From: Myxococcota bacterium
Lineage (GTDB): Bacteria > Myxococcota_A > UBA796 > CAJQPC01
DNA: 64,000 nt
Direction: 5' to 3'
NCBI GenBank assembly: GCA_036229005.1
Contig: JAZAMN010000024.1
Coordinates: 64,001-128,000 of the forward strand
Part shown: in pieces, positions 36,117 through 54,034 of the stretch
Layout of the letters: every line of letters starts with the position of its first letter
Numbering within the stretch: the first letter of the stretch is position 1
Made by a program: the position numbers and the translations under genes
The notes under the pieces: model-generated
Database searches by the model: none
The model's input: the letters and a program-made list of their open reading frames with translations, nothing else
What the model was told of the DNA's origin: nothing

Positions 36117-36512
36117 GTGCCCGGTGAGCGCCAACTGGGGGTAGGGCCGACGACGGCTCAGGCTCAAGAGCGCCTGGACCGGGAGGTCCTGACGGGGAAG
36201 GACGCGTGGGAGCCCAAGCTGCCGGCGCGCACGGGCAAGCAGCGACGCTCCCAGATGCGGGTCGAGGCGGGCCCCAACGCCCCTCAGCTCATCCGCCTGG
36301 TGCGGACCCCCTACTCCATGAGTGCGGCCTGGATCCGGCGTCAGCCCTATGCGGAGATCGGAATGCCGGAGCGCCTGGAGCGGGTGGTCAGCGAGCCCTT
36401 GATGCGCCTCGCTCAGGAGGAACGAGGGACCCTGGAGCGTCCCGGTTCCAAGGATCGCCCCCGGCCGTGGCTGCCCGATCGGAGAAACTGGACGCTGCGG
36501 GGTGAGGAATGA
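36117..36512 (+). CDS. Hypothetical protein leading the CIS operon (start uncertain)
   Basis: Open frame whose TGA overlaps the Pvc16 ATG (ATGA). Confidence 0.45.
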   Translation: MPGERQLGVGPTTAQAQERLDREVLTGKDAWEPKLPARTGKQRRSQMRVEAGPNAPQLIRLVRTPYSMSAAWIRRQPYAEIGMPERLERVVSEPLMRLAQEERGTLERPGSKDRPRPWLPDRRNWTLRGEE

Positions 36513-37357
36513 AGATCCCCGCTCCGCAGAGCTTCCAGGTCGGCAAGTACTCGTCGCCGAACATCATCGGCGAGACCACGGAGGCGGTTCACAAGCTGCT
36601 CCTGGACAGCTACGACGTCAGCGACCGCCCGCCGCGCCTTGAAGAGGACCTCAGCTTCACCCCGAAGGATCGGGAGGAGGTCATCTACGTCTACATGTAC
36701 CGGGCCGCGCAGAACCCCAACCTGCAGCGTCAGAAGCGTCTGCAGTTGGCGCCGGTCGAGGTCCCCAATGATCGCGGCGGGGTAGACGTCTTCTACCACC
36801 GGCCGCCGCTGCTCATGGACCTGTTCTACCTGGTCTGCGTGCACAGTCGCTTCCGCTCGGACGCGGAGCGGCTGTTGGGTTGGGTGCTGCTCACCCTGCA
36901 CTACACCCCCAAGCTGGTCTACCGGCCCCGGCGCTTTCTGCTCCCGGATGGCCGGCTGGTCGACTCCTTCGGTCGCCCCTGGCAGGACCAGGTCAACATC
37001 GAGGAGGCGGGCCTGGTCGCGGAGAAGGTCTCGCTCGCTCAGGTGGACGATCTGACCGTCGGTGACGCGATCAACTTGTTCACGCTCCACGAAGCCCCGT
37101 ATCGTCCCTTCCTGACCTACCGGGCGCGCGTTGCCCTGGATGGCCCCCTGGTGAGCACCGAGGGTGGCTCCACCATCGAGATGGGCAAGAAGGAAACGGA
37201 GATGTTGGAGACCAACTACCCTCATCGGAAGAGCCGGCCGAGCGGGCGCATCGGTCGCCCCCAGATGCCTTCCCGAATTCAAGAACCCCCTGGGCCGAAG
37301 GCCCACAATCTGCGCAAGCGGCATGAACGCATTGCCGACAACGACAGCGAGGAGTGA
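36509..37357 (+). CDS. Pvc16/Afp16 (DUF4255) CIS cap/terminator protein
   Basis: IYVYMYRAAQNPNLQ, PPLLMDLFYLV, ERLLGWVLLTLHYTP, YRPFLTYRARV. Confidence 0.85.
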   Translation: MKIPAPQSFQVGKYSSPNIIGETTEAVHKLLLDSYDVSDRPPRLEEDLSFTPKDREEVIYVYMYRAAQNPNLQRQKRLQLAPVEVPNDRGGVDVFYHRPPLLMDLFYLVCVHSRFRSDAERLLGWVLLTLHYTPKLVYRPRRFLLPDGRLVDSFGRPWQDQVNIEEAGLVAEKVSLAQVDDLTVGDAINLFTLHEAPYRPFLTYRARVALDGPLVSTEGGSTIEMGKKETEMLETNYPHRKSRPSGRIGRPQMPSRIQEPPGPKAHNLRKRHERIADNDSEE

Positions 37358-37360
37358 TCC

Positions 37361-39157
37361 GTGGAGTACAAGACCCCAGGCGTCTACATTCGTGAGGTAG
37401 ACAGCGGCCCCAAGCCCATCGAGTCCGTTTCTACGGCCATTCCCGGCTTCCTGGGCCTGTTCCCCTACAACCCGCCGGCCGACGCAATGGCCATCAGCGG
37501 CACCGATGGCAACCGGGCCATCGAGGGGAAGATCCCGCCCCAGCTGGTCGACAGCAGCGGCAAGATCTCGGCCAACCACTCGACCGAGGCCGCTGCCTCC
37601 ATCATCGAGGCCTTCCGCTTCCGTGACCGTCAGGTCAAGGACGTCGGCGCGCTGCTGAACCTCTACGGTCACAACGTCAAGATCGAGCCCGGCTCCAAGG
37701 GCCGCGTGAAGATCTCCGACACCAAGGACCCCAAGACGAAGATCGAGATCGCCGATGTCCTGGTGGACGTGAAGGGCGCTGTGATCACCGAGGACGATGA
37801 GGCCGTCGAGCAGCTGCTCAACGACATCGGCCAGGTGTTCGCGCTGGAGCAGGCCAAGCCCAAGCACGCCAAGGATGTGCTCTCGGCCTACGGCCTGAAC
37901 TTCGAGGGCAGCGCTCCCACCGCGCTGAACTCCGAGTACTCCATCCCGCCCATCGCGGTGACCAACAAGAGCGAGTTCTTCCGCTGGCTGCAGAGCTTCT
38001 TCGCGGAGTACCTGCTGGCCACCGAGCCGATGGAGGACCTGCTCCCCGGTCAGTCCTTCGAGGACCCCGATGACGCTGCTGACGCGGTGTTCGAGTCCCT
38101 GGCCCGCGACCCGGCCCTCAAGAAGCGCTTCCAGGACTTCCTGTCCCAGCCGAGCGTCTTCAACTTCGTGGCCAGCGTCAACGGCTTCTACGACAACGGC
38201 GGCGGCAAGGCCTACGTCTACCTCATGGGCACCTCCGACATGGACTGCCCCATCCGCGAGAACCAGGCCGACAAGCTCGGCATCTACGCCTTCGACGATG
38301 TCGACGACATGGCGCTGATGGCCGCTCCTGGCCTGACCCCGCGTCAGCAGAAGGAGATGCTGGAGTACTGCGAGATCCGCAAGGACCGCTTCGCCCTGCT
38401 TGACGGCCCGATCGTCTCCGACGGTCAGATGGACATCCCCGCCTCCGAGAAGGGCTACGGCGCCATCTACGTGCCCTGGGTAAAGGTGGCCAAGCCTACC
38501 TGGTTCAACGGCAAGCAGGACCACATCAAGGTCACCGGTCCCAACCGGCGCAAGCTGATCAAGACCGAGAAGAACGAGCTCTTCGTGCCCCCCAGCGGCC
38601 ACATCGCCGGCATCATCGCCCGCGTCGACGGCGAGCGCGGTGTTCACAAGGCCCCGGCCAACGAGCTCATCATGGGCATCACCGGTCTCAGCCAGAACAT
38701 CAACCGCATCGAGCAGGGCCAGTACAACGAGCGCGGCATCAACGTCGTGCGCGTGTTCAAGGACCGCGGCATCCGCGTCTGGGGTGCCCGCACCCTGGCC
38801 ACCAAGTCCGATCCGAGCTGGAAGTACATCAACGTCCGCCGCCTGTTCATCATGGTGGAGCAGTCCATCCTGCTCGGCGCGCAGTGGGCCGTCTTCGAGC
38901 CCAACGATCAGACCCTCTGGAAGAAGCTGGTGCGCGACGTGCGCGCCTACCTCCTGCGCGTCTGGCGCAGCGGCGCGCTCTTCGGAAACACGCCTGAGGA
39001 GGCCTTCTACGTCCGCTGTGACGAGGAGACCAACCCCCGCTACCTGATCGACGCCGGTCAGGTGAACGTGCAGATCGGAATTTGTCCCGTGAAGCCGGCA
39101 GAATTTGTTATCTTCAACATCGGTCAGTGGGACGGTGGCGCCCTGATCGAGGAATAA
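37361..39157 (+). CDS. Contractile tail sheath protein 1
   Basis: YKTPGVYIREV, GFYDNGG, VPPSGHIAG, GVHKAPAN, VWGARTL, YINVRR, AVFEPN, PVKPAEFV. Confidence 0.96.
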   Translation: MEYKTPGVYIREVDSGPKPIESVSTAIPGFLGLFPYNPPADAMAISGTDGNRAIEGKIPPQLVDSSGKISANHSTEAAASIIEAFRFRDRQVKDVGALLNLYGHNVKIEPGSKGRVKISDTKDPKTKIEIADVLVDVKGAVITEDDEAVEQLLNDIGQVFALEQAKPKHAKDVLSAYGLNFEGSAPTALNSEYSIPPIAVTNKSEFFRWLQSFFAEYLLATEPMEDLLPGQSFEDPDDAADAVFESLARDPALKKRFQDFLSQPSVFNFVASVNGFYDNGGGKAYVYLMGTSDMDCPIRENQADKLGIYAFDDVDDMALMAAPGLTPRQQKEMLEYCEIRKDRFALLDGPIVSDGQMDIPASEKGYGAIYVPWVKVAKPTWFNGKQDHIKVTGPNRRKLIKTEKNELFVPPSGHIAGIIARVDGERGVHKAPANELIMGITGLSQNINRIEQGQYNERGINVVRVFKDRGIRVWGARTLATKSDPSWKYINVRRLFIMVEQSILLGAQWAVFEPNDQTLWKKLVRDVRAYLLRVWRSGALFGNTPEEAFYVRCDEETNPRYLIDAGQVNVQIGICPVKPAEFVIFNIGQWDGGALIEE

Positions 39158-39229
39158 ACCCCATCGACCGATTTTCGAGCAACCCGGACGTCAGTCACCA
39201 ACGTCTTGGAACCATAGAGAGAGGACCAC

Positions 39230-39673
39230 ATGCCTACTGATGATCTGTTTGGCGCATACCACTTCCTCCTGGAGATCCAGGGGGTCATCAACGACACCCG
39301 CGTGATCGTCGGCGGCTTCAAGTCCGTGTCCGGCATGGACTCGGAGACGGAGATCGTCGAGTTCAAGCAGGGCAACGACAAGGTCGTTCGTAAGAAGCCG
39401 GGTCGTACCACCTACTCGAACATCGTTCTCGAGCGTGGCTACACCGCGACTGATGACCTCTGGCTCTGGCGGAAGAACATCGAGGACGGCCAGATCGACC
39501 GCCGCTCCGGTTCCGTGATCATCATGGACCAGGATGGCGAGACCGAGGTCGCGCGCTACAACTTCTTCGAGGGTTGGCCCTGCAAGTGGTACGTGCCCGA
39601 CATGGACTCGGATACCTCCGGGATGGCCATTGAGAAGGTCGAGATCGCTGTCGAGAAGGTGGAGCGCGCCTGA
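39230..39673 (+). CDS. Tail tube protein 1 (T4 gp19-like)
   Basis: FKSVSGM, KKPGRTTYSNIVLERG, RRSGSVI, FFEGWPCKW. Confidence 0.95.
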   Translation: MPTDDLFGAYHFLLEIQGVINDTRVIVGGFKSVSGMDSETEIVEFKQGNDKVVRKKPGRTTYSNIVLERGYTATDDLWLWRKNIEDGQIDRRSGSVIIMDQDGETEVARYNFFEGWPCKWYVPDMDSDTSGMAIEKVEIAVEKVERA

Positions 39674-39689
39674 TAGGCCCGCTTCTTCC

Positions 39690-39707
39690 GGCCCCGATGA
39701 TGGGGCC
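39690..39707 (+). other. Short hairpin after the tube gene (possible mRNA stabiliser or attenuator)
   Basis: GGCCCC-gatgat-GGGGCC, no U-tract. Confidence 0.3.
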
Positions 39708-39758
39708 TCACCTGAGTTGATGTAGGTCTACTGACCTTGCTTTTGGAGCTGTTCCGTC

Positions 39759-40124
39759 ATGGAGCTGAAGACCGAGTACGAGTTCACCCTTCCCCGCGGT
39801 TTCGTCGACAAGGACGGAAACATCCACAAGGAAGGGGTGATGCGCCTTGCGAATGCAAAGGACGAGATCGTTCCCTTGAACGATATGCGCGTCCAGCGCA
39901 ACCGGGCGTACTTGATCATTGTGCTGCTCAGCCGTGTGGTGACCAGGCTCGGTACGCTCTCCGAGGTGAACACGGGCACGGTGGAGAATCTCTTCGCCGG
40001 TGACCTGCGCTTCCTCGAGGAGATGTACAACCGCATCAACGAAGATGAGGCCACGGTACGCGTGACGTGTCCTGAGTGCGGCCACCGCTTCGACAAGGAG
40101 TTCGGCCGCCTGGGGGAATCGTAA
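39759..40124 (+). CDS. Tail assembly chaperone-like protein with C-terminal CxxC
   Basis: EYEFTLPRGFVD..GVMRLANAKDEI..LLSRVV..LFAGD..YNRIN..CPECG; directly follows the tube gene. Confidence 0.85.
   Translation: MELKTEYEFTLPRGFVDKDGNIHKEGVMRLANAKDEIVPLNDMRVQRNRAYLIIVLLSRVVTRLGTLSEVNTGTVENLFAGDLRFLEEMYNRINEDEATVRVTCPECGHRFDKEFGRLGES
40112..40118 (+). promoter_or_regulatory. Putative -1 programmed ribosomal frameshift site GGGGGAA
   Basis: CTG GGG GAA TCG TAA; the -1 frame continues into DUF6760. Confidence 0.65.
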
Positions 40125-40279
40125 GCTACCCTCTTGAGAATATTCTCAAGGAGGTAGCGTTCATCGCCTACCACTTTCATTGGGACCGGGATTCACTCAT
40201 GGAGTTGACGCACAAAGAGCGTCACGCCTGGGTGAAGCAGATCTCGTCCATCAACGAGAAGATCAACGCTCCTCGTTGA
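40112..40279 (+). CDS. DUF6760 family segment, probably the C-terminal part of a frameshift product
   Basis: YPLENILKEVAFIAYHFHWDRDSLMELTHKERHAWVKQISSINE; no ATG/GTG/TTG at the domain start. Confidence 0.8.
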   Translation, partial: GGIVSYPLENILKEVAFIAYHFHWDRDSLMELTHKERHAWVKQISSINEKINAPR

Positions 40280-40390
40280 GTTGCAGGACCGTCTGAGCGC
40301 GTAGTCTTCCTGGGTTTCCTCTGGAAGACTGCGCTTATCCCTTCGTGCACGTCCTCTGGATGTGCGCACCCTCCGACCGTGGATCCTCCC

Positions 40391-41581
40391 ATGAAGCCGG
40401 GCATCTCAGTCCAGCACAGCGCGCTGCCGACCCGCCGCTATGGCGTGGTGCGTGCGGACATTGCCGGGATCGTGGGCTTCATCACCAAGGAGCGCTGGCC
40501 CGTCGATGCGGCCGCCGGTGACTTCCTGGAGCTCAAGCTCCAGCGCTTCCGCGAGCTTGAGGATCACCCGCTGAGAGGTCTCTTCGGCCCGGTCACGACC
40601 GAGTCCGTCCGGAGCTTCTTCAACAACGGCGGAGACGTCTGCTTTCTCTTCGGCGTCTGCCTGGAGGACGCCCGCGAACTCGGCTCGGCCGGCAGCATCA
40701 GCAGTGTGCTGGAGCCATTGATCGTCCGGCTCCGCGGCAACGAGGAGATCGCGCTGCTCGCTGTGCCCGAGGCCGCCTACTTGCCCTGGACCATGTCCCG
40801 GACGGGCACAGTGAGCGCCGCCTGCGAGCCGCTGTATCGTGCGCTTCTGGCGCACTGCCGCGAGATGACCTCGCGTTTCCTGATCATGGATACGCCGCTT
40901 GGACTCCACGACGGAGCCCTGGAGCGGTGGGTCCACGCGTTCAGGAGCCTGGATCAGGACAACCTGAGCTACGGCGCGATGTACTACCCCTGGCTGATGA
41001 ACGGAGAGCGCGCGTTGCCCCCTTCCGCCGCGATGCTGGGGGTGTTCGCTCGGGTGGACCGCGAGCATCAGCCCTACGGGGTGATCTGGCCGCCGGCCAA
41101 CGTGCCCGTCCAGGATGTCACCCACCCGCAGGTCCCGTTGACCTGGGGTGAGGCGCAGCACCTGGCCTCCCAGAGCCTGAACCCCATCCTGACTCAGCCC
41201 GGTCGCGGGGTGTTGGTCTTCGGGGCGCGCACCCTGTCGCACGACCCGAACTGGGCTTTCATCAACTCTCGGCGGATCGCCTCGCTCATCTCGGAGCAGC
41301 TCCGGCGGGACAACGAGTGGGTGGTGTTCGAGACCAACCGCTCAGACATCTGGAAGATCCTCTCTCGCGACGTCCGCGCCCGCCTGGACGAGTTCTGGGA
41401 GCGCGGGATGCTCACTGGTGCCGCCGCTGGCCGGGACTACTGGGTCAAGTGCGACGAAGAGAACAACCCTCGGGAAGAGCGGGAGGCCGGTCGCATGAAC
41501 GTGCTCGTCCGCTTCCGTCCCGTGTCCACCACCGAACACATCACCATCGACCTGCGCTTGAGCCAGGCCGACGCCCGCTGA
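40391..41581 (+). CDS. Contractile tail sheath protein 2
   Basis: KPGISV, SFFNNGG, GAMYYPWL, WPPAN, VFGARTL, FINSRR, WVVFETN. Confidence 0.92.
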   Translation: MKPGISVQHSALPTRRYGVVRADIAGIVGFITKERWPVDAAAGDFLELKLQRFRELEDHPLRGLFGPVTTESVRSFFNNGGDVCFLFGVCLEDARELGSAGSISSVLEPLIVRLRGNEEIALLAVPEAAYLPWTMSRTGTVSAACEPLYRALLAHCREMTSRFLIMDTPLGLHDGALERWVHAFRSLDQDNLSYGAMYYPWLMNGERALPPSAAMLGVFARVDREHQPYGVIWPPANVPVQDVTHPQVPLTWGEAQHLASQSLNPILTQPGRGVLVFGARTLSHDPNWAFINSRRIASLISEQLRRDNEWVVFETNRSDIWKILSRDVRARLDEFWERGMLTGAAAGRDYWVKCDEENNPREEREAGRMNVLVRFRPVSTTEHITIDLRLSQADAR

Positions 41582-41593
41582 TCGGAGTCCAAC

Positions 41594-42028
41594 ATGTCCC
41601 GTGAAATCGTCGACCCTGAAGGAAACTTCATCTTCGAGCTGGAGATCGACGGGATCAGCGTCGCCCAGTTCATGGAGTGCAACGGCATCAAGACCACCAC
41701 CACGGTCTTCGAGATCGAAGAGGGTGGGGTGAACCACCGGGTGCACAAGGTCCCCGGCCAGAGCCGCTGGGAGAACCTGGTGCTGCGCTACGGGGTGACC
41801 GCCGACACCACCCTGCTGTCCTGGCGCCAGGAGATCCTGGAGGACGGCTTCGCCAAGCGGCGGAACGGGGCGATCATCATGAAGAACCTCGCGATGGAGG
41901 AGGTCCGTCGCTACAGCTTCACGAACGCCTGGCCAGTGGCCTACGAGGGCCCCAACTTTGTCGCCAACGGCGCGGAGCTGGCCGTCGAGATGATCGAGCT
42001 CGCCCACCAGGGCATCACCGTAAGCTGA
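41594..42028 (+). CDS. Tail tube protein 2 (gp19-like)
   Basis: FMECNGI, EEGGVN..HKVPGQSRWENLVLRYG, NAWPV.YEGP, EMIELAHQG. Confidence 0.95.
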   Translation: MSREIVDPEGNFIFELEIDGISVAQFMECNGIKTTTTVFEIEEGGVNHRVHKVPGQSRWENLVLRYGVTADTTLLSWRQEILEDGFAKRRNGAIIMKNLAMEEVRRYSFTNAWPVAYEGPNFVANGAELAVEMIELAHQGITVS

Positions 42029-42035
42029 GGTCGCC

Positions 42036-45000
42036 ATGAGCACCCAAGAGTTCACAGCACAGCCGCGCCGCGTCCCTGGACAGGGGGTGCTTGAGCGCCT
42101 GGAGCAGCGCAAGCAGCGCCGGCCCCGTATCGGGATGTCGCCGGAGTTCTACGCCCGCTTTGGGATGGCGGATCCGTGGGCAGAGGGCCCTTTGGAGCTG
42201 CAGGACGACCCGGGCTCGCTCTTCACCTATGTCGACGCAACGCGCTACCGGCGGATGATGCGTCGGCTGGCCTTCTCCCGCTGGCGTCGTGAGCGCCGCG
42301 CAAAGCTCTTTCACAGCCGCCGGGTTGGACTGCCCACGGCCGCGCGCCGCGCATTCCCCGGTGAGTCTCGTCGATTCACCTTCGGGCTCCGTACCCTCGG
42401 CCTCTCCGAGATGGTGGTTCCCGAGGCTCCCGAGCCCGAGGTCATCGAGGTCCCCGTCCAGAGCCGGCCCCGCTGGGTGCGAAACGGCATGCGCTCCGTG
42501 GACAACCCCTGGACCCAGACCCGGGGTGGGCCCGCCCGCAGCGTCCAGACCCGGGAGCGTCAGGACGACGGTACGCGCAGTGTGACCACCGACCGGCCCG
42601 CTCGGGTCGCCAGGGCCCGATCCATGGATCGGGTTGGTGCTCGTCTGGAGCAGAGCCAGGCCAGCCGTGACCCCGTCCGCAAGGCCCTGGAGGCCGCTGG
42701 TCCACGTCTGGATCGCCGCACCCAGCGGAAGGTCCAGGCTACGCTCGCAGCAACTGCCCACCTGCCGCCCGCCGAGCGCGCGGTCCGCATCCGAGAGGTC
42801 CTGCGAACCGTCCGTGTCGTCAGGGAGGTCTTCGAGGAGCGTGTCGCTCGGACGGTGCCTTCCAACATGGCGCGCCCTGCCGAGATCGCCAGGGGGCGGG
42901 TTGCTGCTGAGCCTTCGCGTCGCCGTGGCCTGCGTCCGGTGATGGGGCGCTCCCCGTCCATGGATGTGCTCGCCCCGGTCGCCGAGCCCCAGGTCGAGGC
43001 GGCTCCCGCACCTCGCAAGAGCAACACGCAGACCGCTCTGGCGCGCGCGACCACTCGGCGGGTCAGCGCCTGGTCCAAGCCGCCCACGTCAGATGGGGCT
43101 CGGGTGAGTCGGAGCATCAGCCGCTCCCCGGTCGCTCGGAGTGGGGCGCCCCTCAAGCGCACTGCCTCAGGGGCCTTTGTGCCGGCGCGTCGGATGCGCA
43201 CCGTGGAGACCTCGACGGTGCTCAGCAGTGCCGTGAAGACCGCAGAGAGCGCAACCCAAGGGGCAAAGTCCGGCAGCACGCGCACCACCCCGACCTCTGC
43301 TTCCCAGACCCACCGTACCGCCTCCTCCGGGACGACGGTCAGCGGAACCCACAAGACCCAGGGGCAAGAGGCTGTTGGAGCGCGGAGCACCCGGACCTCC
43401 ACCGCTGAGACCCTGGGTGCACGGAGCACCTCGGGAGCCTCTCACGCCGGCGAGGCCACCCGCAGCGCGACCACCGCCAACCGCGAGGACACCGGGGCTC
43501 GCTCCGTCCAGACCGCGGCGGGGGACACGCAGCAGAGTCAGGCGCTTCGCACTCAGGGGCGGGAGTCCCAGGGGGCGCGCAGCTTCACCACGGCCGCAGC
43601 TCAGGCTCGGGGTGTGGAGTCGACCGCCGAGCTTGAGACCACCGGCCTTGGCCATGTCGGTGCCCGCAGCTTCCGGACTGCCGCGAGCGCGCACGCCGCG
43701 GCTCGGGCAGGTGTTCAGCCTCCCTCGCGCGGCGCGCTGCCGACTCCCGCTCGGGTCGCGGCTCGGAGCGCGAGTGGTTCTTTCATTCCCGCTCGTCGGG
43801 TCGCAGGCGCGAGGAGCGAGCAGGCCTCCCCGTCCGACAGTCATGGGGCTTGGGCGCTGCAGCGCCTGGAGCGCACCGGTACCGCGTCCACGGCACGTCG
43901 GGGGCGCTCGCTGCTGCCTCGGATGGCGCCTCGGGCTCCTGAGTCCACCTACGTGGTTCACGCCAACGCCGACCTGGATGTCCAGGCCATGGTCTCGGAG
44001 ATCAAGCGCAGCGTGCCGGGGGCGCAGGTGAGCGTTCGGGAGCCCAAGGCGGTCAAGGCCTGGGGACCTTCGCCGGTCGCAGCGGCTGCGGAGCGCGCGC
44101 AGAAGTCTCCGGTGTTGTCCCAGTCTGCGGGAATGGCGCTGCCCTCCAGCACCGAGCGCAGTCTGCGTCGCGCGGTGGAGAGCAGCGCTCGGGTCGTTCG
44201 CACCCGGAATCCTGTTCGCTACGTGCGGAAGGCCTCAGCGGAGCAGGTGACTCTCGCGGGGGTGGATCCAAACACCCTGACCTCGCTGCCGGCACAGGTG
44301 CGTAAGGCATTGGGAGGCACGGACCCGACCCAGGCGGTGAGGACCGCGCAGGGGGTGTGGATCCCTGCCTCCTCCTTCACCACGGAGAACGCAGGGAGTT
44401 GGTCTGGGGCGCGCGCGCTTCGGACTGCAGCGAGCCGGAGCGCTGGCGCCCGCAGCGGAACCACCCAGAGTGGGAGCGCCGTCGGGGCTGCCCGTCGCCG
44501 GACCCTTGGGAGCCAAGGGACTGGGGCGGCGCGCTTTCGGACGCCGCCGCTCTCGGGTGGGGGCGCGCAGGTGTTCCTGAGCCCGGAGCGTGAGGATGTG
44601 GAGGCTCAGGGCTTCCAGACGACGGCTCGAGAGGATCGGGCAGCGCGCGTCGGCGTCGGTCGGCCTGTGGCCTGGGCTGGTGCTCGCACGCAGCTCACCG
44701 AGACCGGGGCTTGGCAGGGAGCTGAGCGCTTCACGACCGGTCGGGGGGGCTTCGCGCCCGGCGAGCGGGTGCAGGGAGCCAATCGGCAGGCGCGCGGTGC
44801 GCGTCGCAACACGCTCTCTACGCTCGAGGCGCTCTCGGCGCAGGAGTATCAGGCAGGTGGTCCGAGCTGGGCGGAGCGGACCACGCGTCCCTCCCGAATC
44901 CGGACGCCTGGGGACCTGGTCGACCAGCTCGTGCAGGCCCAGGACGTCGAGCAGCTCGTGGGTATCATCGTCGAGCGAGGCGCTGAGATCCGGCCCAACA

Positions 45001-45488
45001 TGGGGCTCCCCAAGCCGGTGATTCAGGTGATCGAGCAGATCCGGAGCGTGGCCGCGGCCGAAGAGCAGGCTGCCCGCTCTGCTGGATCCGGTGGGCGTCA
45101 AGCGCGCGTGGGCGCCCGGGCGAGCACCCGGCGTCGGAACGCCAAGGTCATCCGTGGCTTTGCTTCGTTGAAGGGAGGGACGGCCAGCAGCACCGCCGGA
45201 GTCGGTCCGGACAAGGTGATGAAGCTGGCGTCCAAGCTGCGGAACCTCATTCACCTGGCGGAGGGGGGCCGGACTGCGGATGCCCAGCGTCAGGTCAAGC
45301 TCGCCCACGGGGACCGCCCCGATGGCCGGATGGAGAACGGCACCGACTCCGGGAACTCCGAAACGGCCGCCAAGCAATCTGTAGACATCGAGGCCCTGGC
45401 TCGGGAGGTCCTGGATGTCGTGAACCGTGAGAAGGAGCTCCGACAGGAGCGTCGACAGGAGGAAAGCGATGCTGACGTCTGGTGGTAA
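42036..45488 (+). CDS. Large Arg/Ala/Ser/Thr-rich low-complexity protein, tape-measure-like
   Basis: Located between tube 2 and the tube initiator; C-terminal DIEALAREV...ELRQERR motif typical of CIS loci; GAGG SD. Confidence 0.6.
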   Translation: MSTQEFTAQPRRVPGQGVLERLEQRKQRRPRIGMSPEFYARFGMADPWAEGPLELQDDPGSLFTYVDATRYRRMMRRLAFSRWRRERRAKLFHSRRVGLPTAARRAFPGESRRFTFGLRTLGLSEMVVPEAPEPEVIEVPVQSRPRWVRNGMRSVDNPWTQTRGGPARSVQTRERQDDGTRSVTTDRPARVARARSMDRVGARLEQSQASRDPVRKALEAAGPRLDRRTQRKVQATLAATAHLPPAERAVRIREVLRTVRVVREVFEERVARTVPSNMARPAEIARGRVAAEPSRRRGLRPVMGRSPSMDVLAPVAEPQVEAAPAPRKSNTQTALARATTRRVSAWSKPPTSDGARVSRSISRSPVARSGAPLKRTASGAFVPARRMRTVETSTVLSSAVKTAESATQGAKSGSTRTTPTSASQTHRTASSGTTVSGTHKTQGQEAVGARSTRTSTAETLGARSTSGASHAGEATRSATTANREDTGARSVQTAAGDTQQSQALRTQGRESQGARSFTTAAAQARGVESTAELETTGLGHVGARSFRTAASAHAAARAGVQPPSRGALPTPARVAARSASGSFIPARRVAGARSEQASPSDSHGAWALQRLERTGTASTARRGRSLLPRMAPRAPESTYVVHANADLDVQAMVSEIKRSVPGAQVSVREPKAVKAWGPSPVAAAAERAQKSPVLSQSAGMALPSSTERSLRRAVESSARVVRTRNPVRYVRKASAEQVTLAGVDPNTLTSLPAQVRKALGGTDPTQAVRTAQGVWIPASSFTTENAGSWSGARALRTAASRSAGARSGTTQSGSAVGAARRRTLGSQGTGAARFRTPPLSGGGAQVFLSPEREDVEAQGFQTTAREDRAARVGVGRPVAWAGARTQLTETGAWQGAERFTTGRGGFAPGERVQGANRQARGARRNTLSTLEALSAQEYQAGGPSWAERTTRPSRIRTPGDLVDQLVQAQDVEQLVGIIVERGAEIRPNMGLPKPVIQVIEQIRSVAAAEEQAARSAGSGGRQARVGARASTRRRNAKVIRGFASLKGGTASSTAGVGPDKVMKLASKLRNLIHLAEGGRTADAQRQVKLAHGDRPDGRMENGTDSGNSETAAKQSVDIEALAREVLDVVNREKELRQERRQEESDADVWW

Positions 45489-47901
45489 GGCGACGTTCAT
45501 CGACCTCGACCTTGGAAGGATCTTTACGGTCCAGTACAACCCCAAGGAATTCAAGGTCGACAAGGCGGTCTCCTGGAAGGAGCACGACGACCAGGGCCAG
45601 TCGCAGGCCCCCCTTGAGTTCCAGAAGGGGGCGCCCATCGTGGTCACGATGGAGCTCATCTTCGACACGACCCACGACGGTTCGGACGTCCGGAGCAAGG
45701 TGCAGGGCCTGATGGCCTTCACCAACGCGGACGTGCCGGTGCAGGGCGAAGGGTCGATGGACAAGAAGCGTCCGCCGCATCTGCAGTTCACTTGGGGCAA
45801 CTTCACGATCACCTGCGTGATCGAGTCCCTCAACGTCAGCTACCTGATGTTCTCCAGCGGCGGTAAGCCCATCCGGGCGCGCGTCTCGCTCAAGCTCAAG
45901 GAGTGGGAGCCCAAGGATGCCGCTGGTGGCAGCGGTGGCAGCGGGATCAGCGGCAGCAAGATCAAGCTGGTGAGCGCGGGGGCCGGGGCAACGGCCAGCT
46001 CGCTTGCCTCCCAGCACGGGACGACCGCGCGCCAGATCATGGATGACAACAACATCGATGACGGCATGGACATCCCGGCGGGCACGGAGCTCGTGATCAA
46101 CGATCCGAGCGGTGGGCCCGGCAACGTCAGCTCCAACCGCAACCAGACCTCGTCGGACTCTCCCTTCCAGGAGATCCAGGACGCCATCTCCGAGGTCCAG
46201 AAGGTGGTCAAGGAGGTCGAGAAGACCAAGAAGCAGATCGAGCAGATCTTCAACCCGACCGCGGGCAAGCCTCCTGGCAGCAAGGGAGGCTCCGGCCGTC
46301 CCGGCAGCGGTGGCGTCGCTGGCGCCCCTGGTTTCCCGGGTGCTGGTGGCGGAAAGCCGGGTAGCGCTCCCGGTGGCGCAGGCGGCTCCGGACCTGGCTA
46401 CGGTGGCGGCTACGGCGGCGGTGCAGGCGGTCCTGGCGGCGGCGGTGCAGGCGGTCCCGGTGGCGGCGGTGCAGGCGGTCCTGGCGGCGGCGGTGCAGGC
46501 GGTCCTGGCGGCGGCGGTGCTGGTGGCGGCGCAGGCGGTGCTGGTGGCGGCAAGCCCGGTGGCGGTGGCTCTTCCGGTGGTGCTGGTGGCGGCAAGCCCG
46601 GTGGCGCAGGAGGCTCCGGCGGTGGCGCTGGTGGCGGTAAGCCCGGCGGCGGTGGCTCCTCTGGTGGTGCTGGTGGGGGCAAGCCCGGCGGCGCTGGTGG
46701 TGCTGGCGGCGGCGCTGGTGGTTCCGGTGGCGGCGCAGGTGGTGCTGGCGGCGGCGCAGGTGGTTCCGGCGGCGGCGCTGGTGGTTCCGGCGGCGGCGCA
46801 GGTGGTGCTGGCGGCAGCGCAGGCGGTGCTGGCGGTGGCGCAGGTGGCTCCGGCGGTGGTGCCGGCGGCGCAGGTGGCTCTGGCGGTGGTGCTGGCGGCG
46901 CAGGTGGCTCCGGCGGTGGTGCTGGCGGCGCAGGCGGTTCCGGCGGTGGTGCTGGCGGCGCAGGTGGCTCCGGCGGCGCAGGCGGGTCCGGCGCGGGTGC
47001 TGGCGGCGCAGGCGGTGCCGGCGGTGCTGGCGGCGCAGGTGGCTCCGGCGGTTCCGGCGGCTCCGGCAGTGGCAAGCCCGGCGGCGGTAGCAGTTCGGGT
47101 GGGTCCAGCGGGTCCGGCGGCAAGCCTGGTGGCTCCGGCGGCGGTGCAGGCGGTGGTGCTGGCGGCGCAGGTGGCTCCGGCGGTTCCGGCAGTGGCAAGC
47201 CCGGAGGCGGTAGCAGTTCGGGTGGGTCCAGCGGGTCCGGCGGCAAGCCCGGTGGCTCCGGCGGCGGTGCAGGCGCAGGCGGCGCAGGTGGCTCCGGCGG
47301 TGCAGGCGCAGGCGGCGCAGGTGGCTCCGGCGGTGGTGCAGGCGCAGGCGGCGCAGGTGGCTCCGGCGGTGGTGCAGGCGCAGGTGGCTCCGGCAGTGGC
47401 GCCGGCGGATCCGGCTCCGGCAAGCCCAGCGGCGGCAGCTCCTCCTCTTCTGGAGGGGCCGGCGGCAAGCCGGGTGGTGCCGGTGGCTCGGGCGGCGGTG
47501 CGGGGGCTGGTGGCGCTGGCGGCTCCGGCTCTGGCAAGCCTGGCGGGGGCAGCTCGTCGGGTGGCAGCTCCTCGGGTGGCAAGCCCAGCGGTGCCGGCGG
47601 CTCCGGGAGCAGTGGTGGCTCGTCGAGCGGCAAGCCCAGCGGTGGGAGCTCGTCGGGCGGAGGTGGAGCCAAGCCCAGCAGCGCGGGTGGCGGCAGCTCT
47701 TCGGGCGGGAAGCCCAGGGGAGGCAGCAGCTCGGGTAGCGGCGGCAGCGGCCCCTCAGGCAGCAGCAGCGGCTCCAGTGGACCTTCGGGTCCTCGTGGTC
47801 CCCGTCAGGCGAACACCCAGGGTGGAGGCCGAAAGGTGGCCTCCGACGTCAAGTCGGCCAAGGCGAAGGCTGAGGCCAAGGCTTCGGAAGGAAAGGAGTA
47901 G
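45469..47901 (+). CDS. CIS tube initiator (Afp7/Pvc7-like) with LysM-like domain and very long Gly-rich tail
   Basis: VQYNPKEF, MELIFDT, RPPHLQFTWG, VIESLNVSYLMF..GKPIRARVSLKLKE; LASQHGTTARQIMDDNNI..IPAGTELVI; AGGAGG SD. Confidence 0.88.
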   Translation: MLTSGGKATFIDLDLGRIFTVQYNPKEFKVDKAVSWKEHDDQGQSQAPLEFQKGAPIVVTMELIFDTTHDGSDVRSKVQGLMAFTNADVPVQGEGSMDKKRPPHLQFTWGNFTITCVIESLNVSYLMFSSGGKPIRARVSLKLKEWEPKDAAGGSGGSGISGSKIKLVSAGAGATASSLASQHGTTARQIMDDNNIDDGMDIPAGTELVINDPSGGPGNVSSNRNQTSSDSPFQEIQDAISEVQKVVKEVEKTKKQIEQIFNPTAGKPPGSKGGSGRPGSGGVAGAPGFPGAGGGKPGSAPGGAGGSGPGYGGGYGGGAGGPGGGGAGGPGGGGAGGPGGGGAGGPGGGGAGGGAGGAGGGKPGGGGSSGGAGGGKPGGAGGSGGGAGGGKPGGGGSSGGAGGGKPGGAGGAGGGAGGSGGGAGGAGGGAGGSGGGAGGSGGGAGGAGGSAGGAGGGAGGSGGGAGGAGGSGGGAGGAGGSGGGAGGAGGSGGGAGGAGGSGGAGGSGAGAGGAGGAGGAGGAGGSGGSGGSGSGKPGGGSSSGGSSGSGGKPGGSGGGAGGGAGGAGGSGGSGSGKPGGGSSSGGSSGSGGKPGGSGGGAGAGGAGGSGGAGAGGAGGSGGGAGAGGAGGSGGGAGAGGSGSGAGGSGSGKPSGGSSSSSGGAGGKPGGAGGSGGGAGAGGAGGSGSGKPGGGSSSGGSSSGGKPSGAGGSGSSGGSSSGKPSGGSSSGGGGAKPSSAGGGSSSGGKPRGGSSSGSGGSGPSGSSSGSSGPSGPRGPRQANTQGGGRKVASDVKSAKAKAEAKASEGKE
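46264..47805 (+). repeat. Coding Gly-rich tandem repeat array
   Basis: 24-bp GGGGAGGP units, 30-bp GGAGGSGGGA units, recurring GKP, duplicated SGSGKPGGGSSSGGSSGSGGKPGG block. Confidence 0.9.
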
Positions 47902-47904
47902 CGC

Positions 47905-48942
47905 ATGTCTTCGCAGCCTCGCTCCACCGCGGTCGGCTTTGAAGTGACCATCGGTGGCCAGACCTTCACCCAGGCCTCGGAAGAGGGTGGTGTGCAGATG
48001 CTGGTCGTCGAGGATCACGTCGATATGACCGACATGCTCACCCTCCGGATGGGCGGGACCCAGGGCCAACCGGACTGGAACTGGAAGATCGGCGACGAGG
48101 TCGAGTGCAAGCTCGGCAGCGGCGGCACCATCTTCAAGGGGCAGATCACCGCCATGGAGCCCGGGTACCAGGTCGAAGGGACCAGCACGGTCACCCTGCG
48201 GGCCATGGACCAGATGCACAAGCTGGGCCGTGGCCGGAAGACCCGCACCTTCGAGGACATGAAGGACTCCGACGTCGTCAGCCAGGTCGCCGGTGAGGCC
48301 GGCATCCCGACGGGCAACATCGAGGCCACTTCGGAGATCCACCCCTACATCCTGCAGCGCAACGAGTCCGACGTCGCCTTCCTCAAGCGGCTGGCGGCGC
48401 GGAACAACTACCTGCTGACCATGGAGGACGGGTCCATCGCCTTCAAGCGCGCCCAGTTCGGTGGCGGTGGGTACAAGCTCAAGATGGGGGACAACCTGCG
48501 CAGCATGCGGATGTCCTTCAACTCCATGGACCAGGTCCAGAAGGTGGTCGTGCGCGGGTGGGACCCCCACACCAAGCAGGCCATTGTCGGGGAGGCCACC
48601 ACGGCCGACGTCGAGCGCATCGGCGGAGGTGAGGTGGGCGCGGACACCGCGGGCCAGTTCGGAGAGTCCACTGCGTACATCACCGATGTGCCGGTGTTCT
48701 CCCAGGCCGCCGCCAACGAGATCGCAAAGGTCGAGATGAACCGGCTCGCCCGTCAGTTCGGCCGCGGCAGCGCCACGGTCCAAGGCAACGAGCAGATCCG
48801 CGCGGGCACGACCGTCGAGGTCGAGGGGCTCCAGAAGGGCAACAACGGCACCTTCTTCATCCTCTCCAGCCGGCACGTGATCTCCAACCGCTCCGGCTAC
48901 ACCACCGAGTTCAGCTTCTGCACCAACACGATGGGCACCTGA
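47905..48942 (+). CDS. Baseplate hub (phage late control D / gp27-like, VgrG N-terminal part only)
   Basis: GRKTRTFEDMKDSDVV, QRNESDVAFLKRLAAR, VVVRGWDP, GNEQIRAG; ends without an OB-fold or beta-helix. Confidence 0.9.
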   Translation: MSSQPRSTAVGFEVTIGGQTFTQASEEGGVQMLVVEDHVDMTDMLTLRMGGTQGQPDWNWKIGDEVECKLGSGGTIFKGQITAMEPGYQVEGTSTVTLRAMDQMHKLGRGRKTRTFEDMKDSDVVSQVAGEAGIPTGNIEATSEIHPYILQRNESDVAFLKRLAARNNYLLTMEDGSIAFKRAQFGGGGYKLKMGDNLRSMRMSFNSMDQVQKVVVRGWDPHTKQAIVGEATTADVERIGGGEVGADTAGQFGESTAYITDVPVFSQAAANEIAKVEMNRLARQFGRGSATVQGNEQIRAGTTVEVEGLQKGNNGTFFILSSRHVISNRSGYTTEFSFCTNTMGT

Positions 48943-49037
48943 GCTCGGGCCCCCGGGCCCCGTCCGAACGCCCCCAGAGGTAGACTCCCGGGGCACCGCG
49001 CGGAGGCACCCGCGCAGACCTGCACTGGAGCAGCCTA

Positions 49038-49427
49038 GTGTCTCAGCGAGACTTTCTCGGGAAGGGGTGGGCATTCCCCTTCGGATTCGACCGCGCGAGC
49101 GGTGGGGTCCGGACCTCCTCGGGCGAGGAGAACATCCGGCAGTGCATCACCGTGATCCTGTCCACCCGGCCGGGTGAGCGGCAGATGCTCCCGGAGTTCG
49201 GCTGTCGGCTGCACGAGGTCCTGTTCGCGCCGAACACCCAGGCGACCTCGGCGCTCATCGCGCACCATGTCAAGACCGCGCTCGTCCGCTGGGAGCCACG
49301 CATCGAGGTGCTGGACGTGCAGGCCCAGGCCCAGGCTGATGGGTCGGTCAACGTCGACGTGCACTACCTGATCAAGGCCACGAACACCCGCCAGGTCCAC
49401 ACCACGGCCCTGGCCAACACCCGCTGA
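49038..49427 (+). CDS. Baseplate wedge GPW/gp25 family
   Basis: FLGKGWAFPF, ILSTRPGERQMLPEFGC, RWEPRIEV. Confidence 0.95.
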   Translation: MSQRDFLGKGWAFPFGFDRASGGVRTSSGEENIRQCITVILSTRPGERQMLPEFGCRLHEVLFAPNTQATSALIAHHVKTALVRWEPRIEVLDVQAQAQADGSVNVDVHYLIKATNTRQVHTTALANTR

Positions 49428-49433
49428 GTCTCC

Positions 49434-52400
49434 ATGCCGATCAAGCCGCCAAACCTCGACGATCGCCGCTACGAAGACATCGTCGCCCAGGCACGCTCCC
49501 TGATCCCCCAGTACACCCCCGAGTGGACCAACCTGGGGGACGCGGATCCGGGAATGACCCTCGTCCAGCTCTTCGCCTGGATGACGGAGATGACGATCTA
49601 CCGGCTCAACCGGGTGCCGGACAAGACCTACATCCACTTCCTGAACTTCATCGGCGAGGAGCGCCGGGCGGCCCGACCCTCCGTGGCTCCGGTGACGTTC
49701 AGGCTGCGGGCGGATCACCCGGTCGAGGTCCCTGCGTTCACAAAGGTCGCTACCCGGCAGCGTGAAGACCTTCCGGCGCTGGACTTCCTGACCTCGCAGG
49801 CGCTGACCGTGCACGACAGCAAGGTCGTACGCGTCATGGCCGTCAAGGGTGGGCCCACCCCCTCCGTGCGGGAGTTGCCCTTCTCCTGGCTCGGTGGAGA
49901 CCCCAGCGCGCTCTCCTTTGCCGGTGGAGCGGGCGTCGCGGTCTTCGAGATCGACCCCCTGCACTTCGGGCCGGACGCCTACACCCCGCATCAGTACCTC
50001 TACTTGGGCCACGACGACCTCCGCCTGATGGACATCGATCCCGAAGAGGACACGGACCGGCCCCTCGGACGCCTCCAGGCCCGCCGGCGCTCCGGCGACC
50101 CCCTGTCGATCATCAACTTCTTCCGCTGGGAATACCCCACGGAGCAGGGCTGGCAGCCGATCTACGTCGAGCGCGAGGGCGAAGCCCCCTACGGCATCCC
50201 CGAGCACACCCTGATCACGGCCATGCCGGGCATCATGCCGCTGGATCGCTTCGGGCTCCAGGGCGCGGAGTTCATCAAGCCGGCCTCCGTCCGCGACCAG
50301 GACTGGTGGATCCGCGGGACTCTGGACTACGAGGCCTGGATGGCCGCCCGGATGGATCAGGAGTCGCGTGAGCAGGGTGGGGGAGACCTCTCCATCACCT
50401 GGCACGATGACCGCGGCGGCGAGGTCCGGGAGCTCAACAACTGGTCGGTGCGCGCTGCGGGCCGGACGCTGGAGTTCTACCTCAAGGATGCCCCCCTGAT
50501 CCGCGGTGGCTGGTCCCTGCGGCTCTCTCTGGTGGACCGGGGGCTGCAGGCGGGGAGGACGGCTGCGTTCCCCAAGTACCGCTTCTCCTACCGCCGGGGT
50601 GAGGTCTGGCAGCCCATCCCTGACGATCGCGTCCGGGTCGAGGGCACCGAGATCATCCTCCACGGTCCCCTCAACGACATGGCCCGCGACGGCTACAACC
50701 TGCGGGCGGAGCGCATCGAGACGGTGTTCCTGCGCGGGCTCATCAAGGACCTGGAGCTGGACCTGAACTGGTCCCGGCCGGTCGAGCTCTCCCTGCTCGC
50801 GGGTGACAACCCCTTGTCGCTCGTGCAGCTCCCCATGGACGAGCGCCCCTGGTCTCCCTTCCAGATGTCGTCGGTGCTCCCGCCCACCATCGGGCGGCGC
50901 CTCTACATCGGCTCGGACCTCTTCGAGAACCGGCAGAAGCTGCCCATCCTGGTCGAGTTCGAGATCGCCTTCGAGCTCAACGGCGAAGAGATCGAGGAGC
51001 CCGTCGACGACTACAAGCTGCAGCTCACCTACCGCGCCGACGACAACTGGCGCGTGGTCTACAGCCCAGACCAGCGCTACGCCGGCTTCACCCTCTCGGA
51101 CATCGACCCCGAGGGCGCGAAGAAGGCTGGGCGGCGCCGGGTGCGCATCGTCATCGACCCCGCCGAGCAGCTCAAGGGACTGGCCCGCCACGAGGTCTCC
51201 AACATCGAGACCACCTGGCTGCGGCTGGAGCTCATCAAGTCCAACCTCACCGGTCAGGACAAGAAGAAGAACGTGCACCCGGTGGTGCCGCGCATCCACA
51301 ACCTCCGCCTGGGGCCCGAGAAGACCCTGGGGATGGAGGCCTACGACCAGCCCATGCCCAACCCCCTGGTGGCCCAGGTGGATCACCGCGAGCAGAACCG
51401 CCGCTTGACGCGCTGCGTGTCCCGGGTGGCCGGCCGGACCTCGGAGAAGCACCCCTTCTTCCGCTTCGTGGACCTGGAGGAGGAGACCCTGTCCCTCTAC
51501 CTCCAGTTCGACAAGCCGCTCCCCCGGGGAGAGCGCCACGCCCTGCACTTCCGCTGCCGCGGCGAGGCCTTCCTGCCCGAGGGCACCTACGTGGAGTGGG
51601 AGATCCTGGAGCGCCGGCAGCACGGCCGCACCGCCTGGCGTCGGCTGGTTTCCTCCGGTGACAGCGGCCCGGGTGTCTACGAGCTCTCCCGCAGCGGCGA
51701 GCTGGAGTTCGCCCTCCCGGACATCCCCCCGGTTCCGGACGACGGCTTCTGGCTGCGCGCCCGCTTCGTCCTGCCCGAGGACACCGGCCTGGACGCGCTC
51801 CCCGGTCTGCCGCCCCTGACCCACCTGATGCTGAACACCGTCGAGGTGGTCAACCTGGACACCGTCCGCGCCGAGCGCTTCTCGGGACTGGGGGTGCCCA
51901 ACCAGGTGCTGGAGCTGCGCGAGCACCCCATCTTCATCCACCCCGGAGAGCAGGACAAGGCGGTCTTCCCGCGGCCCGAGCTGTTCACGGACGTGGCCGT
52001 GACCGTCATCTACCCCGACGGCACCCGCGAGCCCTGGTACCGGGTCGATGACCTGCTGCTCACCGGCAAGGACGACCCGGTCTACACCGTGGACCCCGTG
52101 GACGGCACGCTGCACTTTGGCAACGGCATCCGCGGCCGCATGCTGCCCGTCGGGACCAACAACGTCCTGGTCGACGTCTACCACGTCGTCCCCGGCGAGA
52201 AGGGCAACATCGGGGCCCACGAGATCCGCGTCGCGGACGGCTTCGGGGACCGGGTGGAGATCTCCAACCTGCTGCCGGCCACCGGCGGGCGGGACGCCGA
52301 GTCCATCGACGAGATCATCGAGCGGGCCCCCTCGCTGCTGACCTCCCGGGACCGGGCCGTGACCCGTCAGGACTTCGAGATCATCGCCATGGAGGCCTCC

Positions 52401-52946: not shown

Positions 52947-54034
52947 TGCTGCCCACCCTCCGCCGCGGCGGCCCGCCGGATCTGCGTGATGACTACCTGC
53001 ACCTGCGCACGGTGGTCCAGATCCGCTACCCCGTCCGACAGGCCCAGGCTTATCTGAGGCGGGTGTTGGGCAACCCCGTCCGGGTGCACCTCGTCGAATC
53101 GCAGCGGGGCGAACCCATCGGGAACGTCCGTGCCATCGAGGTCTTCCCGGCCGCGGGGGGCGACCCGGTGCTCCTGCGCGCGGTCCGCTGCCTGCCCGAC
53201 GGCAGTGAGGCTGGCCCCTTCGTGCCGGAAGAGCTCACCGAGACCCAGGTGCGCGTGACCACCTGGGACGGCCGGCCCCCTCCCGGGCTCGGTCCCCAGG
53301 ACTGGGTGATCCTGCACGTCCCGGTCAAGAGCTACATGCGCTTTCTGCCCGGGGCCTTCCAGGGCGCCGTGCCCATGCAGCGCAAGGATGTCGTCCGGGC
53401 GGACGAGGTCAGCCTGCGCCGCTGGGGACACGGCGAGAGCCAGGAGCAGAGCACCGAGGTCCAGGCGCAGGACGCAGACGCCATGCGGCGGATGCTGTTC
53501 ATCTTCCAGCACCTGATGACCACGGTGGTCGACAAGGTCACCGACATCCCGTCCATCACGGACCCGCTGACCTGCGATCCCCGATTCCTGCCCTGGATGG
53601 CGAGCTGGGTGGGCTTCTCGCTGGACGAGAGCCTGCCCCTGCACCAGCAGCGTGAGCTCACCCGCCGGGCCATCCGGCTGTACCGCACCCGCGGCACCAA
53701 GCAGGGGATGGAGGAGATCGTCAAGGTCCTCACCAACGCCCCGGTGGCTGTGTCCGAGCGGGAGAAGCCCCAGCCCTTCGTGCTGGGCGCGGCGACCCTG
53801 GCTGGCGGCGCGAACATCTCCGAGCGCTACGAGCGCGGAGAGCCGCCTCCCTTCTACCTGGTGCGGCCCGAACGGCCGGACATCTCCTTCTTTGCCCTGG
53901 TCCTGGAGCGTCGCGAGCGCTTTCAGCGCCGCTTCTCCGAGCGCGCCCCCGAGGTGCTCCGTCGCATCTCCAAGGTGGTGACGGACGAGAAGCCCGCCCA
54001 CGTGACCTTCACCATCCGCTTCGAGAAACGCTGA
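52946..54034 (+). CDS. Baseplate/tail protein (P2 gpI-like) with N-terminal extension
   Basis: YMRFLPG, DPLTCDPRFLPWMASWVG, LYRTRGT, EKPAHV. Confidence 0.88.
   Translation: MLPTLRRGGPPDLRDDYLHLRTVVQIRYPVRQAQAYLRRVLGNPVRVHLVESQRGEPIGNVRAIEVFPAAGGDPVLLRAVRCLPDGSEAGPFVPEELTETQVRVTTWDGRPPPGLGPQDWVILHVPVKSYMRFLPGAFQGAVPMQRKDVVRADEVSLRRWGHGESQEQSTEVQAQDADAMRRMLFIFQHLMTTVVDKVTDIPSITDPLTCDPRFLPWMASWVGFSLDESLPLHQQRELTRRAIRLYRTRGTKQGMEEIVKVLTNAPVAVSEREKPQPFVLGAATLAGGANISERYERGEPPPFYLVRPERPDISFFALVLERRERFQRRFSERAPEVLRRISKVVTDEKPAHVTFTIRFEKR

Follow-up and report, generated by a model that had tools for sequence, protein, structure and literature searches.

A putative programmed -1 ribosomal frameshift linking a tail-assembly-chaperone-like gene to DUF6760 in eCIS loci of bacteria and archaea

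Results

Organization of the eCIS locus

The window analyzed here, a 64,000-nucleotide stretch of a Myxococcota bacterium genome, contains an eCIS gene cluster (Table 1). A Pfam scan of its open reading frames between 26 and 56 kb identified Pvc16, sheath, tube, CIS_tube-LysM, hub, gp25, baseplate J, P2-I and AAA ATPase genes, and the sheath, tube, Pvc16, CIS_tube-LysM, hub, baseplate and AAA ATPase genes assign the cluster to the eCIS. The first tail tube gene is followed by two overlapping reading frames, hereafter G and T, and a tube gene was likewise found at most 700 nt upstream of G in 166 of the 193 dereplicated loci with enough flanking sequence. The earlier note on this DNA had likened the placement of G and T to that of phage chaperone genes between tube and tape-measure genes. 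The upstream half of this comparison stands, but the Pfam scan of the window detected no recognizable tape-measure gene directly after T, where a second sheath and a second tube gene are encountered instead; a 1150-aa ORF comes after the second tube gene. In a Streptomyces locus, a long hypothetical gene lies directly 3' of the pair.

Table 1. Coordinates of the features discussed in the text (positions within the window).
Feature	Position	Strand	Description
eCIS cluster	36509..54034	+	Order: Pvc16, sheath, tube, G/T, sheath 2, tube 2, 1150-aa ORF, CIS_tube-LysM, hub, gp25, baseplate J, P2-I
Tail tube gene	39230..39673	+	Directly 5' of G; PF06841, E 4e-34
G	39759..40124	+	0-frame product, 121 aa, tail-assembly-chaperone-like; C-terminal CxxC hairpin
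SD-like AAGGAG	40095..40100	+	Candidate 5' stimulator; 11 nt before heptamer
Slippery heptamer G GGG GAA	40112..40118	+	In X XXY YYZ register with the G ORF
Spacer	40119..40124	+	6 nt, with G stop TAA (40122-40124); from sequence
T (DUF6760)	40121..40279	+	52 codons, -1 frame, three helices; predicted C-terminal part of GT; PF20546, E 3.8e-15
Stem-loop	40125..40158	+	34 nt, 6 nt after heptamer; candidate 3' stimulator; encodes first DUF6760 residues
Hairpin after T stop	40294..40337	+	-26 kcal/mol for 40285-40345, z -4.2
Low-complexity ORF	42036-45488		1150 aa, Arg/Ala/Ser/Thr-rich; usual tape-measure or cargo slot; without Pfam match

The hairpin after the T stop codon is not termed a terminator here because it lacks a U-run, and a terminator scan did not call it. 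Two RNA-library contigs end close to it, at 40313 and 40290, a weak hint that it could possibly be where the transcript ends or is processed. An ORF shortly beyond the baseplate genes, at 55010-55921, combines a YukD ubiquitin-like domain with a weak PHD-finger match. The same genome encodes a second eCIS locus (L002; G000:C50:15898-19038, minus strand) with a divergent G of about 30% identity that lacks the CxxC hairpin. In this divergent family, G of L002 ends in G GGG TGA, overlapped by a GTG, and the junctions of its relatives vary (G GGG TAA GTA, G GGA TGA ATG, G GGC TGA). The L002 junction fits coupling as well as a shift at the stop codon, and given the variation among its relatives both may coexist.

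Sequence of the G-T junction

As the earlier note had read it, G ends in CTG GGG GAA TCG TAA, with GGGGGAA in register, and DUF6760 is encoded in the -1 frame. This frame is open from 40076 to 40279. Its only canonical start upstream of the domain, GTG 40076, lies inside G and is not preceded by SD-like bases, and the next ones (ATG 40199, TTG 40205 and GTG 40232) fall mid-domain, again in agreement with the initial reading. At the domain boundary the -1 frame holds ATC (40118) and GTA (40121), leaving T without a canonical start of its own there. Contigs from four runs of four studies (two DNA and two RNA libraries) span the junction with no base difference or indel listed at 40112-40158, noting that contigs drop rare variants and that one DNA run is possibly related to the source sample. 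These public contigs all show GTA, not GTG, at 40121. The RNA-library contigs extend over tube, G and T, which does not prove transcription.

Within this genome's long ORFs, counted without separating real from shadow ORFs, G GGG GAA accounts for only 279 of 26,779 Gly-Glu dicodons (1%), and it is present at the junction in all 30 relative loci. A -1 shift at this site would yield a predicted fusion (GT) of 173 aa by either slip route, supporting the earlier proposal that DUF6760 is the T part of a G-T fusion of about that length. The residue decoded at the shift would be Glu after a tandem slip or Gly after a P-site slip, so that the Gly assumed previously may instead be Glu.

Conservation of phase and slippery site

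Loci for the comparative analysis were chosen by G core, T core or Pfam family, and never by their junction. In total, 351 were gathered and 350 analyzed, with L311 (from the unpublished genome G841) kept out of the counts. The G-core scans supplied the best 80 of 596 metagenome stretches and the best 80 of 600 genome stretches, and further loci came from a viral collection (13) and from cyanobacteria (30). Kin are over-represented among these loci, which are not independent, and dereplicated counts are preferred because some genomes entered twice by different routes. Pair counts exclude nine loci without T (six cut by contig ends and three G-only cyanobacterial copies) and four without G or at an edge. 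DUF6760 was detected in 58 of 61 related genomes, in 81 of 201 genomes of the phylum sample and in samples centred on a cyanobacterium (18 of 201 genomes), a methanogen (12 of 251) and a streptomycete (11 of 201). A further 39 plasmid records, in which several phyla and haloarchaea are represented, contained it; 14 of these were taken into the sample. The G pattern is present in an estimated 6,300 stretches of a species-level genome collection. Two loci labelled as Klebsiella pneumoniae and Enterobacteriaceae MAGs (L199, L211) have junctions nearly identical to those of Myxococcota-phylum loci, and their labels may be wrong.

The earlier note had suggested comparing heptamer and phase across eCIS loci, and both proved to be conserved. 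T is in the -1 phase in 335 of 337 G+T pairs, encompassing many bacterial phyla and archaea, and the two off-phase pairs (L046, L341), in which the G-run is retained, appear to result from indels inside G. An in-phase slippery motif was identified in 217 of 225 pairs (85% dereplication), compared to 165 of 2221 control windows in the body of G, and in-phase GGGGG in 179 of these pairs versus 22 of the control windows; the windows span 30 nt and the junction zone up to 45 nt. The slippery site is hence conserved in codon register, with GGGGG in 179 pairs, G GGG (mostly before the stop) in 16, another X XXY YYZ motif in 22 and no motif in 8. No ATG, GTG or TTG is found in the last 30 nt of 149 of the 225 dereplicated pairs, and 95 have no start back to the in-frame stop. 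L292 has no room for a start, because a stop immediately precedes the GGG.

Codon usage around the site was analyzed in the first 180 dereplicated loci, 164 of which present a terminal Gly, picked at the protein level. This Gly is encoded by GGG in 154 of the 164 (21% background) and preceded by G in 155 (32% background), and a Glu that follows it is encoded by GAA in 88 of 100 cases (34% background). The first codon after the site encodes Ile, Val or Met in the -1 frame in 119 of 123 loci, as opposed to a 0 frame that varies among Ser, stop, Leu and Phe; 5' of the site, the -1 frame is variable and contains stops.

At 78% dereplication (161 loci), a canonical start falls within the final 15 nt in 58 loci and the motif is missing from 8, but 52 of the 58 start-bearing loci retain it. 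Six loci (L188, L122, L179, L114, L238 and L314) look separately started, with no overlap of the G and T frames in L188, and coupled starts probably operate in a minority of loci. In L062 and L086 the site is altered to C CCG GAG and C CTG GAG GGG, but PGG(I/V)VRY is retained in the -1 frame; this is possibly a further slip-site variant. On a Treponema plasmid (L042, 841-2504), an ISAs1 transposase splits G, leaving the G GGG GAA junction and T intact.

RNA signals flanking the site

A stem-loop follows the heptamer in the window, with a folding energy of -19.5 kcal/mol (z -5.5) that was reached by none of 200 shuffled sequences. Across 81 loci with GGGGG, dereplicated at 75%, the mean folding energy of the opening 39 nt of T is -16.8 kcal/mol versus -8.4 for synonymous recodings (mean z -3.0), compared to mean z-scores of -0.2 to -0.55 in seven other windows under the same folding test. 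With the stem structure derived from the same sequences, paired cells in an ungapped alignment amount to 80.9%, versus 76.5% in shuffled (0/500) and 35-57% in slid alignments. Changes on both sides of a pair were observed in 38 cells versus 21 in shuffles (0/500), but the number of pairs showing them (8 of 12) is not above shuffles (69/500). A Val codon in the 3' arm of the stem is GTA in 102 of 110 cases, versus 11% across the long ORFs of this genome. Loci with U-rich sites, the G GGG-stop and motif-less groups and start-bearing haloarchaeal loci have a weak stem.

Upstream of the site, pairing with the anti-SD exceeds that of synonymous recodings by 1.1-1.5 kcal/mol at spacers of 7-11 nt and by at most 0.4 kcal/mol at 3-5 and 14-19 nt, a comparison of means with no significance figure. 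Frameshift cassettes of the dnaX/IS type combine a heptamer with a 3' structure 5-9 nt downstream and an internal SD about 10-14 nt upstream. The window reproduces this layout, with a stem after a 6-nt spacer and an SD-like element at 11 nt, around the heptamer G GGG GAA, which is not a strict X XXY YYZ heptamer. Stimulation of backward shifts by SD elements is described in the available text of PMC10885494. Both the stem-loop and the SD-like element are new relative to the first reading of this locus.

Alternative slippery sites and archaeal loci

In some, mostly Bacillota, loci the G-run is replaced by A AAT TTT (8 loci) or T TTT TTR (11 loci), and 15 of these 19 have no start after the site. 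TTTTTTG is the site given for P2 E/E+E' (PMC3091744, available text). All six haloarchaeal-type loci, two on named haloarchaeal plasmids and four from genomes of the same group, present G GGA AAY, and two of the six lack a start; G_GGA_AAC is given as the site of halovirus HCTV-1 in the text available from PMC5009743. Fifteen other archaeal loci (seven named, including Methanosarcina and ANME-2, with at least one genome represented twice) retain the G-run and mostly the stem, and 12 of them lack a start. In a quick tree, used for the clustering of site types alone and not for the order of events, the U-rich and G GGA AAY types cluster by lineage.

Protein families of G and T

G matches the 'tail assembly chaperone' family phrog_508 in 14 of 14 family members, Gp41_Mu in 23 of 100 members and TAC_7 in 4 of 100. 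The structural model of G (pLDDT 87) matches the fold of T4-type hub assembly proteins (E down to 2e-8), Mu FS-gp41 (E 5.8e-3, TM 0.55) and, weakly, the HK97 chaperone 2OB9 (E 0.24, probability 0.63). These matches are individually weak, and together they indicate homology of G with tail assembly chaperones. No solved structure in the PDB matched the fold of G at E<=0.001, and sequence searches for G returned neither an NCBIfam family nor a solved structure. T is modelled as three helices (pLDDT 92), and a fold search with it gave no significant match. At a lax threshold of E<=0.5, PF06528 (Phage_P2_GpE) was detected in 47 of 99 T family members, with a best E-value of 1.9e-5 and no match for the window's own T. 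A tblastn search for G or T in 50,697 phage records found no match.

Five database proteins of 150-159 aa, known as protein only, bear G and DUF6760 in one frame. They are not the product of one sequencing slip, because four of them group as a family (75-79% identity) whose junctions diverge. The full fusions were found by HMMER search; a word-index search for longer DUF6760 proteins gave only P0121 (partial G plus T, probably an artefact) and P0122 (an upstream extension), which were set aside. The fusion family (P0233, P0275, P0276, P0277, P0278) lacks the CxxC hairpin, and within this list P0278 is a close relative that ends before T. There are no G-T fusions among the 337 pairs, and a search of 401 cyanobacterial genomes with a fused protein gave no full-length match among the matches listed. 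G-like genes were found in 126 of these 401 genomes, often in two or three copies. The cyanobacterial loci (L322-L351, e.g. L337:108-2120) present the order tube, tube, G without slip site or T, and G with slip site and T, followed in L337 by a protein-kinase-like gene.

Discussion

A -1 frameshift as the favored reading

The interpretation that we favor starts from what is observed, namely the phase, the heptamer, the missing start and the conserved site and 3' stem-loop. It proposes, with a probability of roughly 0.86, that a -1 ribosomal frameshift at G GGG GAA generates a 173-aa GT beside the 121-aa G, the two making up a tail-assembly chaperone pair. The programmed shift itself appears highly probable on the sequence evidence; granted the shift, a classical chaperone role is reasonably likely by analogy with phages. 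Mechanistically, the Gly-tRNA on GGG would re-pair with the GGG that overlaps it; meanwhile, the stem-loop, 6 nt downstream, would slow the ribosome and the SD-like AAGGAG, 11 nt upstream, would pull it back. Re-pairing of Gly-tRNA on the G-run is the proposed driver because the core G GGG G is invariant, in contrast to the codon that follows (GAA, GGG, GGA or GAG). The shift would set the G:GT ratio. By extension from lambda G/GT and P2 E/E+E', many copies of G may coat a length-determining protein, and, following the lambda analogy, a few copies of GT may use the DUF6760 helices to recruit tube subunits, thereby nucleating tube assembly. The first tube protein is the likely client of the T domain under the same analogy.

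Alternative explanations

The frameshift could be real and its products something other than classical tape-measure chaperones, serving instead in cargo loading or tube-subunit handling and possibly staying in the particle. We regard this as unlikely, if worth weighing. No recognizable tape-measure gene adjoins T in the window, Sco4251 was found in at least one particle preparation according to the available text of PMC10020575, the cyanobacterial tube, tube, G and G+T genes adjoin non-CIS genes, often with two or three G copies per genome, and the best fold matches of G are T4-type hub assembly proteins. Against this, G and T both match families of the P2/Mu chaperone pair, the gene follows the tube gene as in phages, and the T4 hub assembly proteins have themselves been proposed as tail assembly chaperones, going by the title of a published paper.

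DUF6760 might also be produced as a separate small protein, either through coupled re-initiation at the G stop (at near-cognate ATC or GTA in the window and at RTG elsewhere) or from GTG 40076. This appears quite improbable, even though starts in the last 15 nt of 58 of the 161 loci, the six loci that look separately started, the overlapping GTG of L002 and the RefSeq annotation of many pairs as separate genes with RTGA overlaps all speak for it. The codon at -51 is ATG, GTG or TTG in 28 of 30 relatives, but it is set by the Glu-Cys codons of G and is stop-closed in 9 of the 30. GTG 40076, which the earlier note had listed as a start that could overturn the frameshift, was accordingly rejected as a general true start, the frame from that position being stop-closed before the slip site in those nine relatives. 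The codons at the domain boundary vary (GTA, GTG, GTC, GCA and GCT at 40121; ATC, ATA and ATT at 40118), the SD-like element lies 17-20 nt from them, and the stable stem begins 4-7 nt after them. A stable stem just after a start codon hinders initiation. Moreover, separate initiation leaves unexplained both the constraint on the G-run and its replacement by other slip sites.

Slippage of RNA polymerase on the G5 run, adding one G to some transcripts that are then read normally into DUF6760, would fit a homopolymeric invariant core that reaches G7 in 28 and G6 in 18 of 268 loci. Yet the motifs keep the register of tRNA re-pairing, including the non-homopolymeric A AAT TTT and G GGA AAY, the stem lies 3' at ribosome spacing, and the RNA-library contigs, which represent the major form only, show no inserted base, making this explanation very improbable. 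An assembly error or pseudogene, conceivable in a 94%-complete genome of 74 contigs, can be practically dismissed given the identical junction bases in four runs of four studies and the -1 layout shared by 335 of 337 pairs; the four runs likewise reject a sequencing error.

Implications

A broader reading, to which we give slightly better than even odds, is that a large class of eCIS in bacteria and archaea kept the phage G/GT shift and fitted it with an RNA stimulator, which would place it among the most widespread -1 shifts in cell-encoded genes, with the same cassette read by methanogen and haloarchaeal ribosomes and the G:GT ratio as a missing control point. To our knowledge, almost no chromosomal -1 shift is established in methanogens and haloarchaea, and the intact cassette is present in Methanosarcina and relatives. 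For archaea, the available text of a review lists -1 shifting only in haloviral G-T genes, magnesium chelatase and, as a possibility, in Sulfolobus (PMC5009743).

If the frameshift is confirmed, DUF6760 would be assigned a function, the two-gene annotation in many genomes would need correction and the G:GT ratio would become a control point for building and engineering particles, in which codon optimization of refactored clusters would destroy the slip site. The tape-measure model of eCIS length control needs chaperones, which G/GT would supply; the available text of bioRxiv 2026.05.27.728243, on length control by tape measures, mentions chaperones for phages only. Similarly, sco4251, of unknown function in the model Streptomyces system (PMC10020575, available text), would acquire a function if Sco4251 is the G orthologue.

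Prior descriptions of the gene pair

Sarris 2014 treated the Mu-gp41-like ORFs of PLTS/eCIS clusters, reported for some clusters in the available text of PMC4122934, as optional, and RefSeq annotates a 'phage tail assembly protein' and a 'DUF6760 family protein' as two genes; the Mu-gp41-like ORFs and the RefSeq 'phage tail assembly protein' are very likely the same G gene. The term 'frameshift' is absent from the six supplements of PMC10020575 and, by term search, from the available main text of PMC12998442, PMC11126660, PMC13277306, PMC8213781 and PMC4122934; this search also took in the available part of bioRxiv 2022.08.09.503279. A literature search for 'DUF6760', with most subscription papers and many supplements outside its reach, returned no papers, and one for eCIS with frameshift or tail assembly chaperone, which mostly left out subscription papers, returned only unrelated or reference-list matches, in keeping with the earlier impression that an eCIS frameshift had not been described.

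Comparison with known systems

The best significant fold matches of G, the T4-type hub assembly proteins (gp26/gp51-like), differ from it in their length of 250-270 aa. T4 itself is reported not to frameshift in the available text of PMC5009743, and an HK97-like TAC cluster shifts at 6-7% in that of PMC3711429.

Tail assembly chaperone frameshifts of actinobacteriophages use the identical heptamer, in siphophage genes. The earlier note had labelled GGGGGAA the 'L5-type' site of mycobacteriophages. Its standing as a known phage slippery site is borne out by the SEA-PHAGES source, whose available part gives GGGGGAA as the invariant 'fivetwo' motif of about 1,000 frameshifts.

Lambda gpG/gpGT present the same -1 join of G and T, but belong to a non-contractile tail and gave no sequence match here. 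The lambda slip site is G GGA AAG. In lambda, G binds the tape measure and T the major tail protein, at a ratio of about 30:1 (PMC5009743, text available).

The eCIS pair resembles P2 gpE/gpE+E' (PF10109, PF06528) and Mu gp41/FS-gp41 (PF23746), which likewise belong to contractile tails with the chaperone after the tube. G and, more weakly, T have family matches to P2/Mu, and one eCIS lineage uses the TTTTTTG site of P2. With P2 products of 91 and 142 aa, the -1 extension is short, about 50 aa, as in the eCIS pair (PMC3091744, available text). The same text describes a conserved 3' stem-loop as rare among phage sites and absent in P2, and such a stem-loop is present in the eCIS pair. In contrast with P2 and Mu, the eCIS particle is cell-encoded and has no capsid (as judged from the genes read at 26-56 kb), the main site is G GGG GRN, G bears a CxxC hairpin, and a second sheath or tube gene often comes next. 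Judged by its sequence features, the pair would very probably represent a variant of the phage G/GT chaperone system that operates in a machine encoded by cells of Bacteria and Archaea alike.
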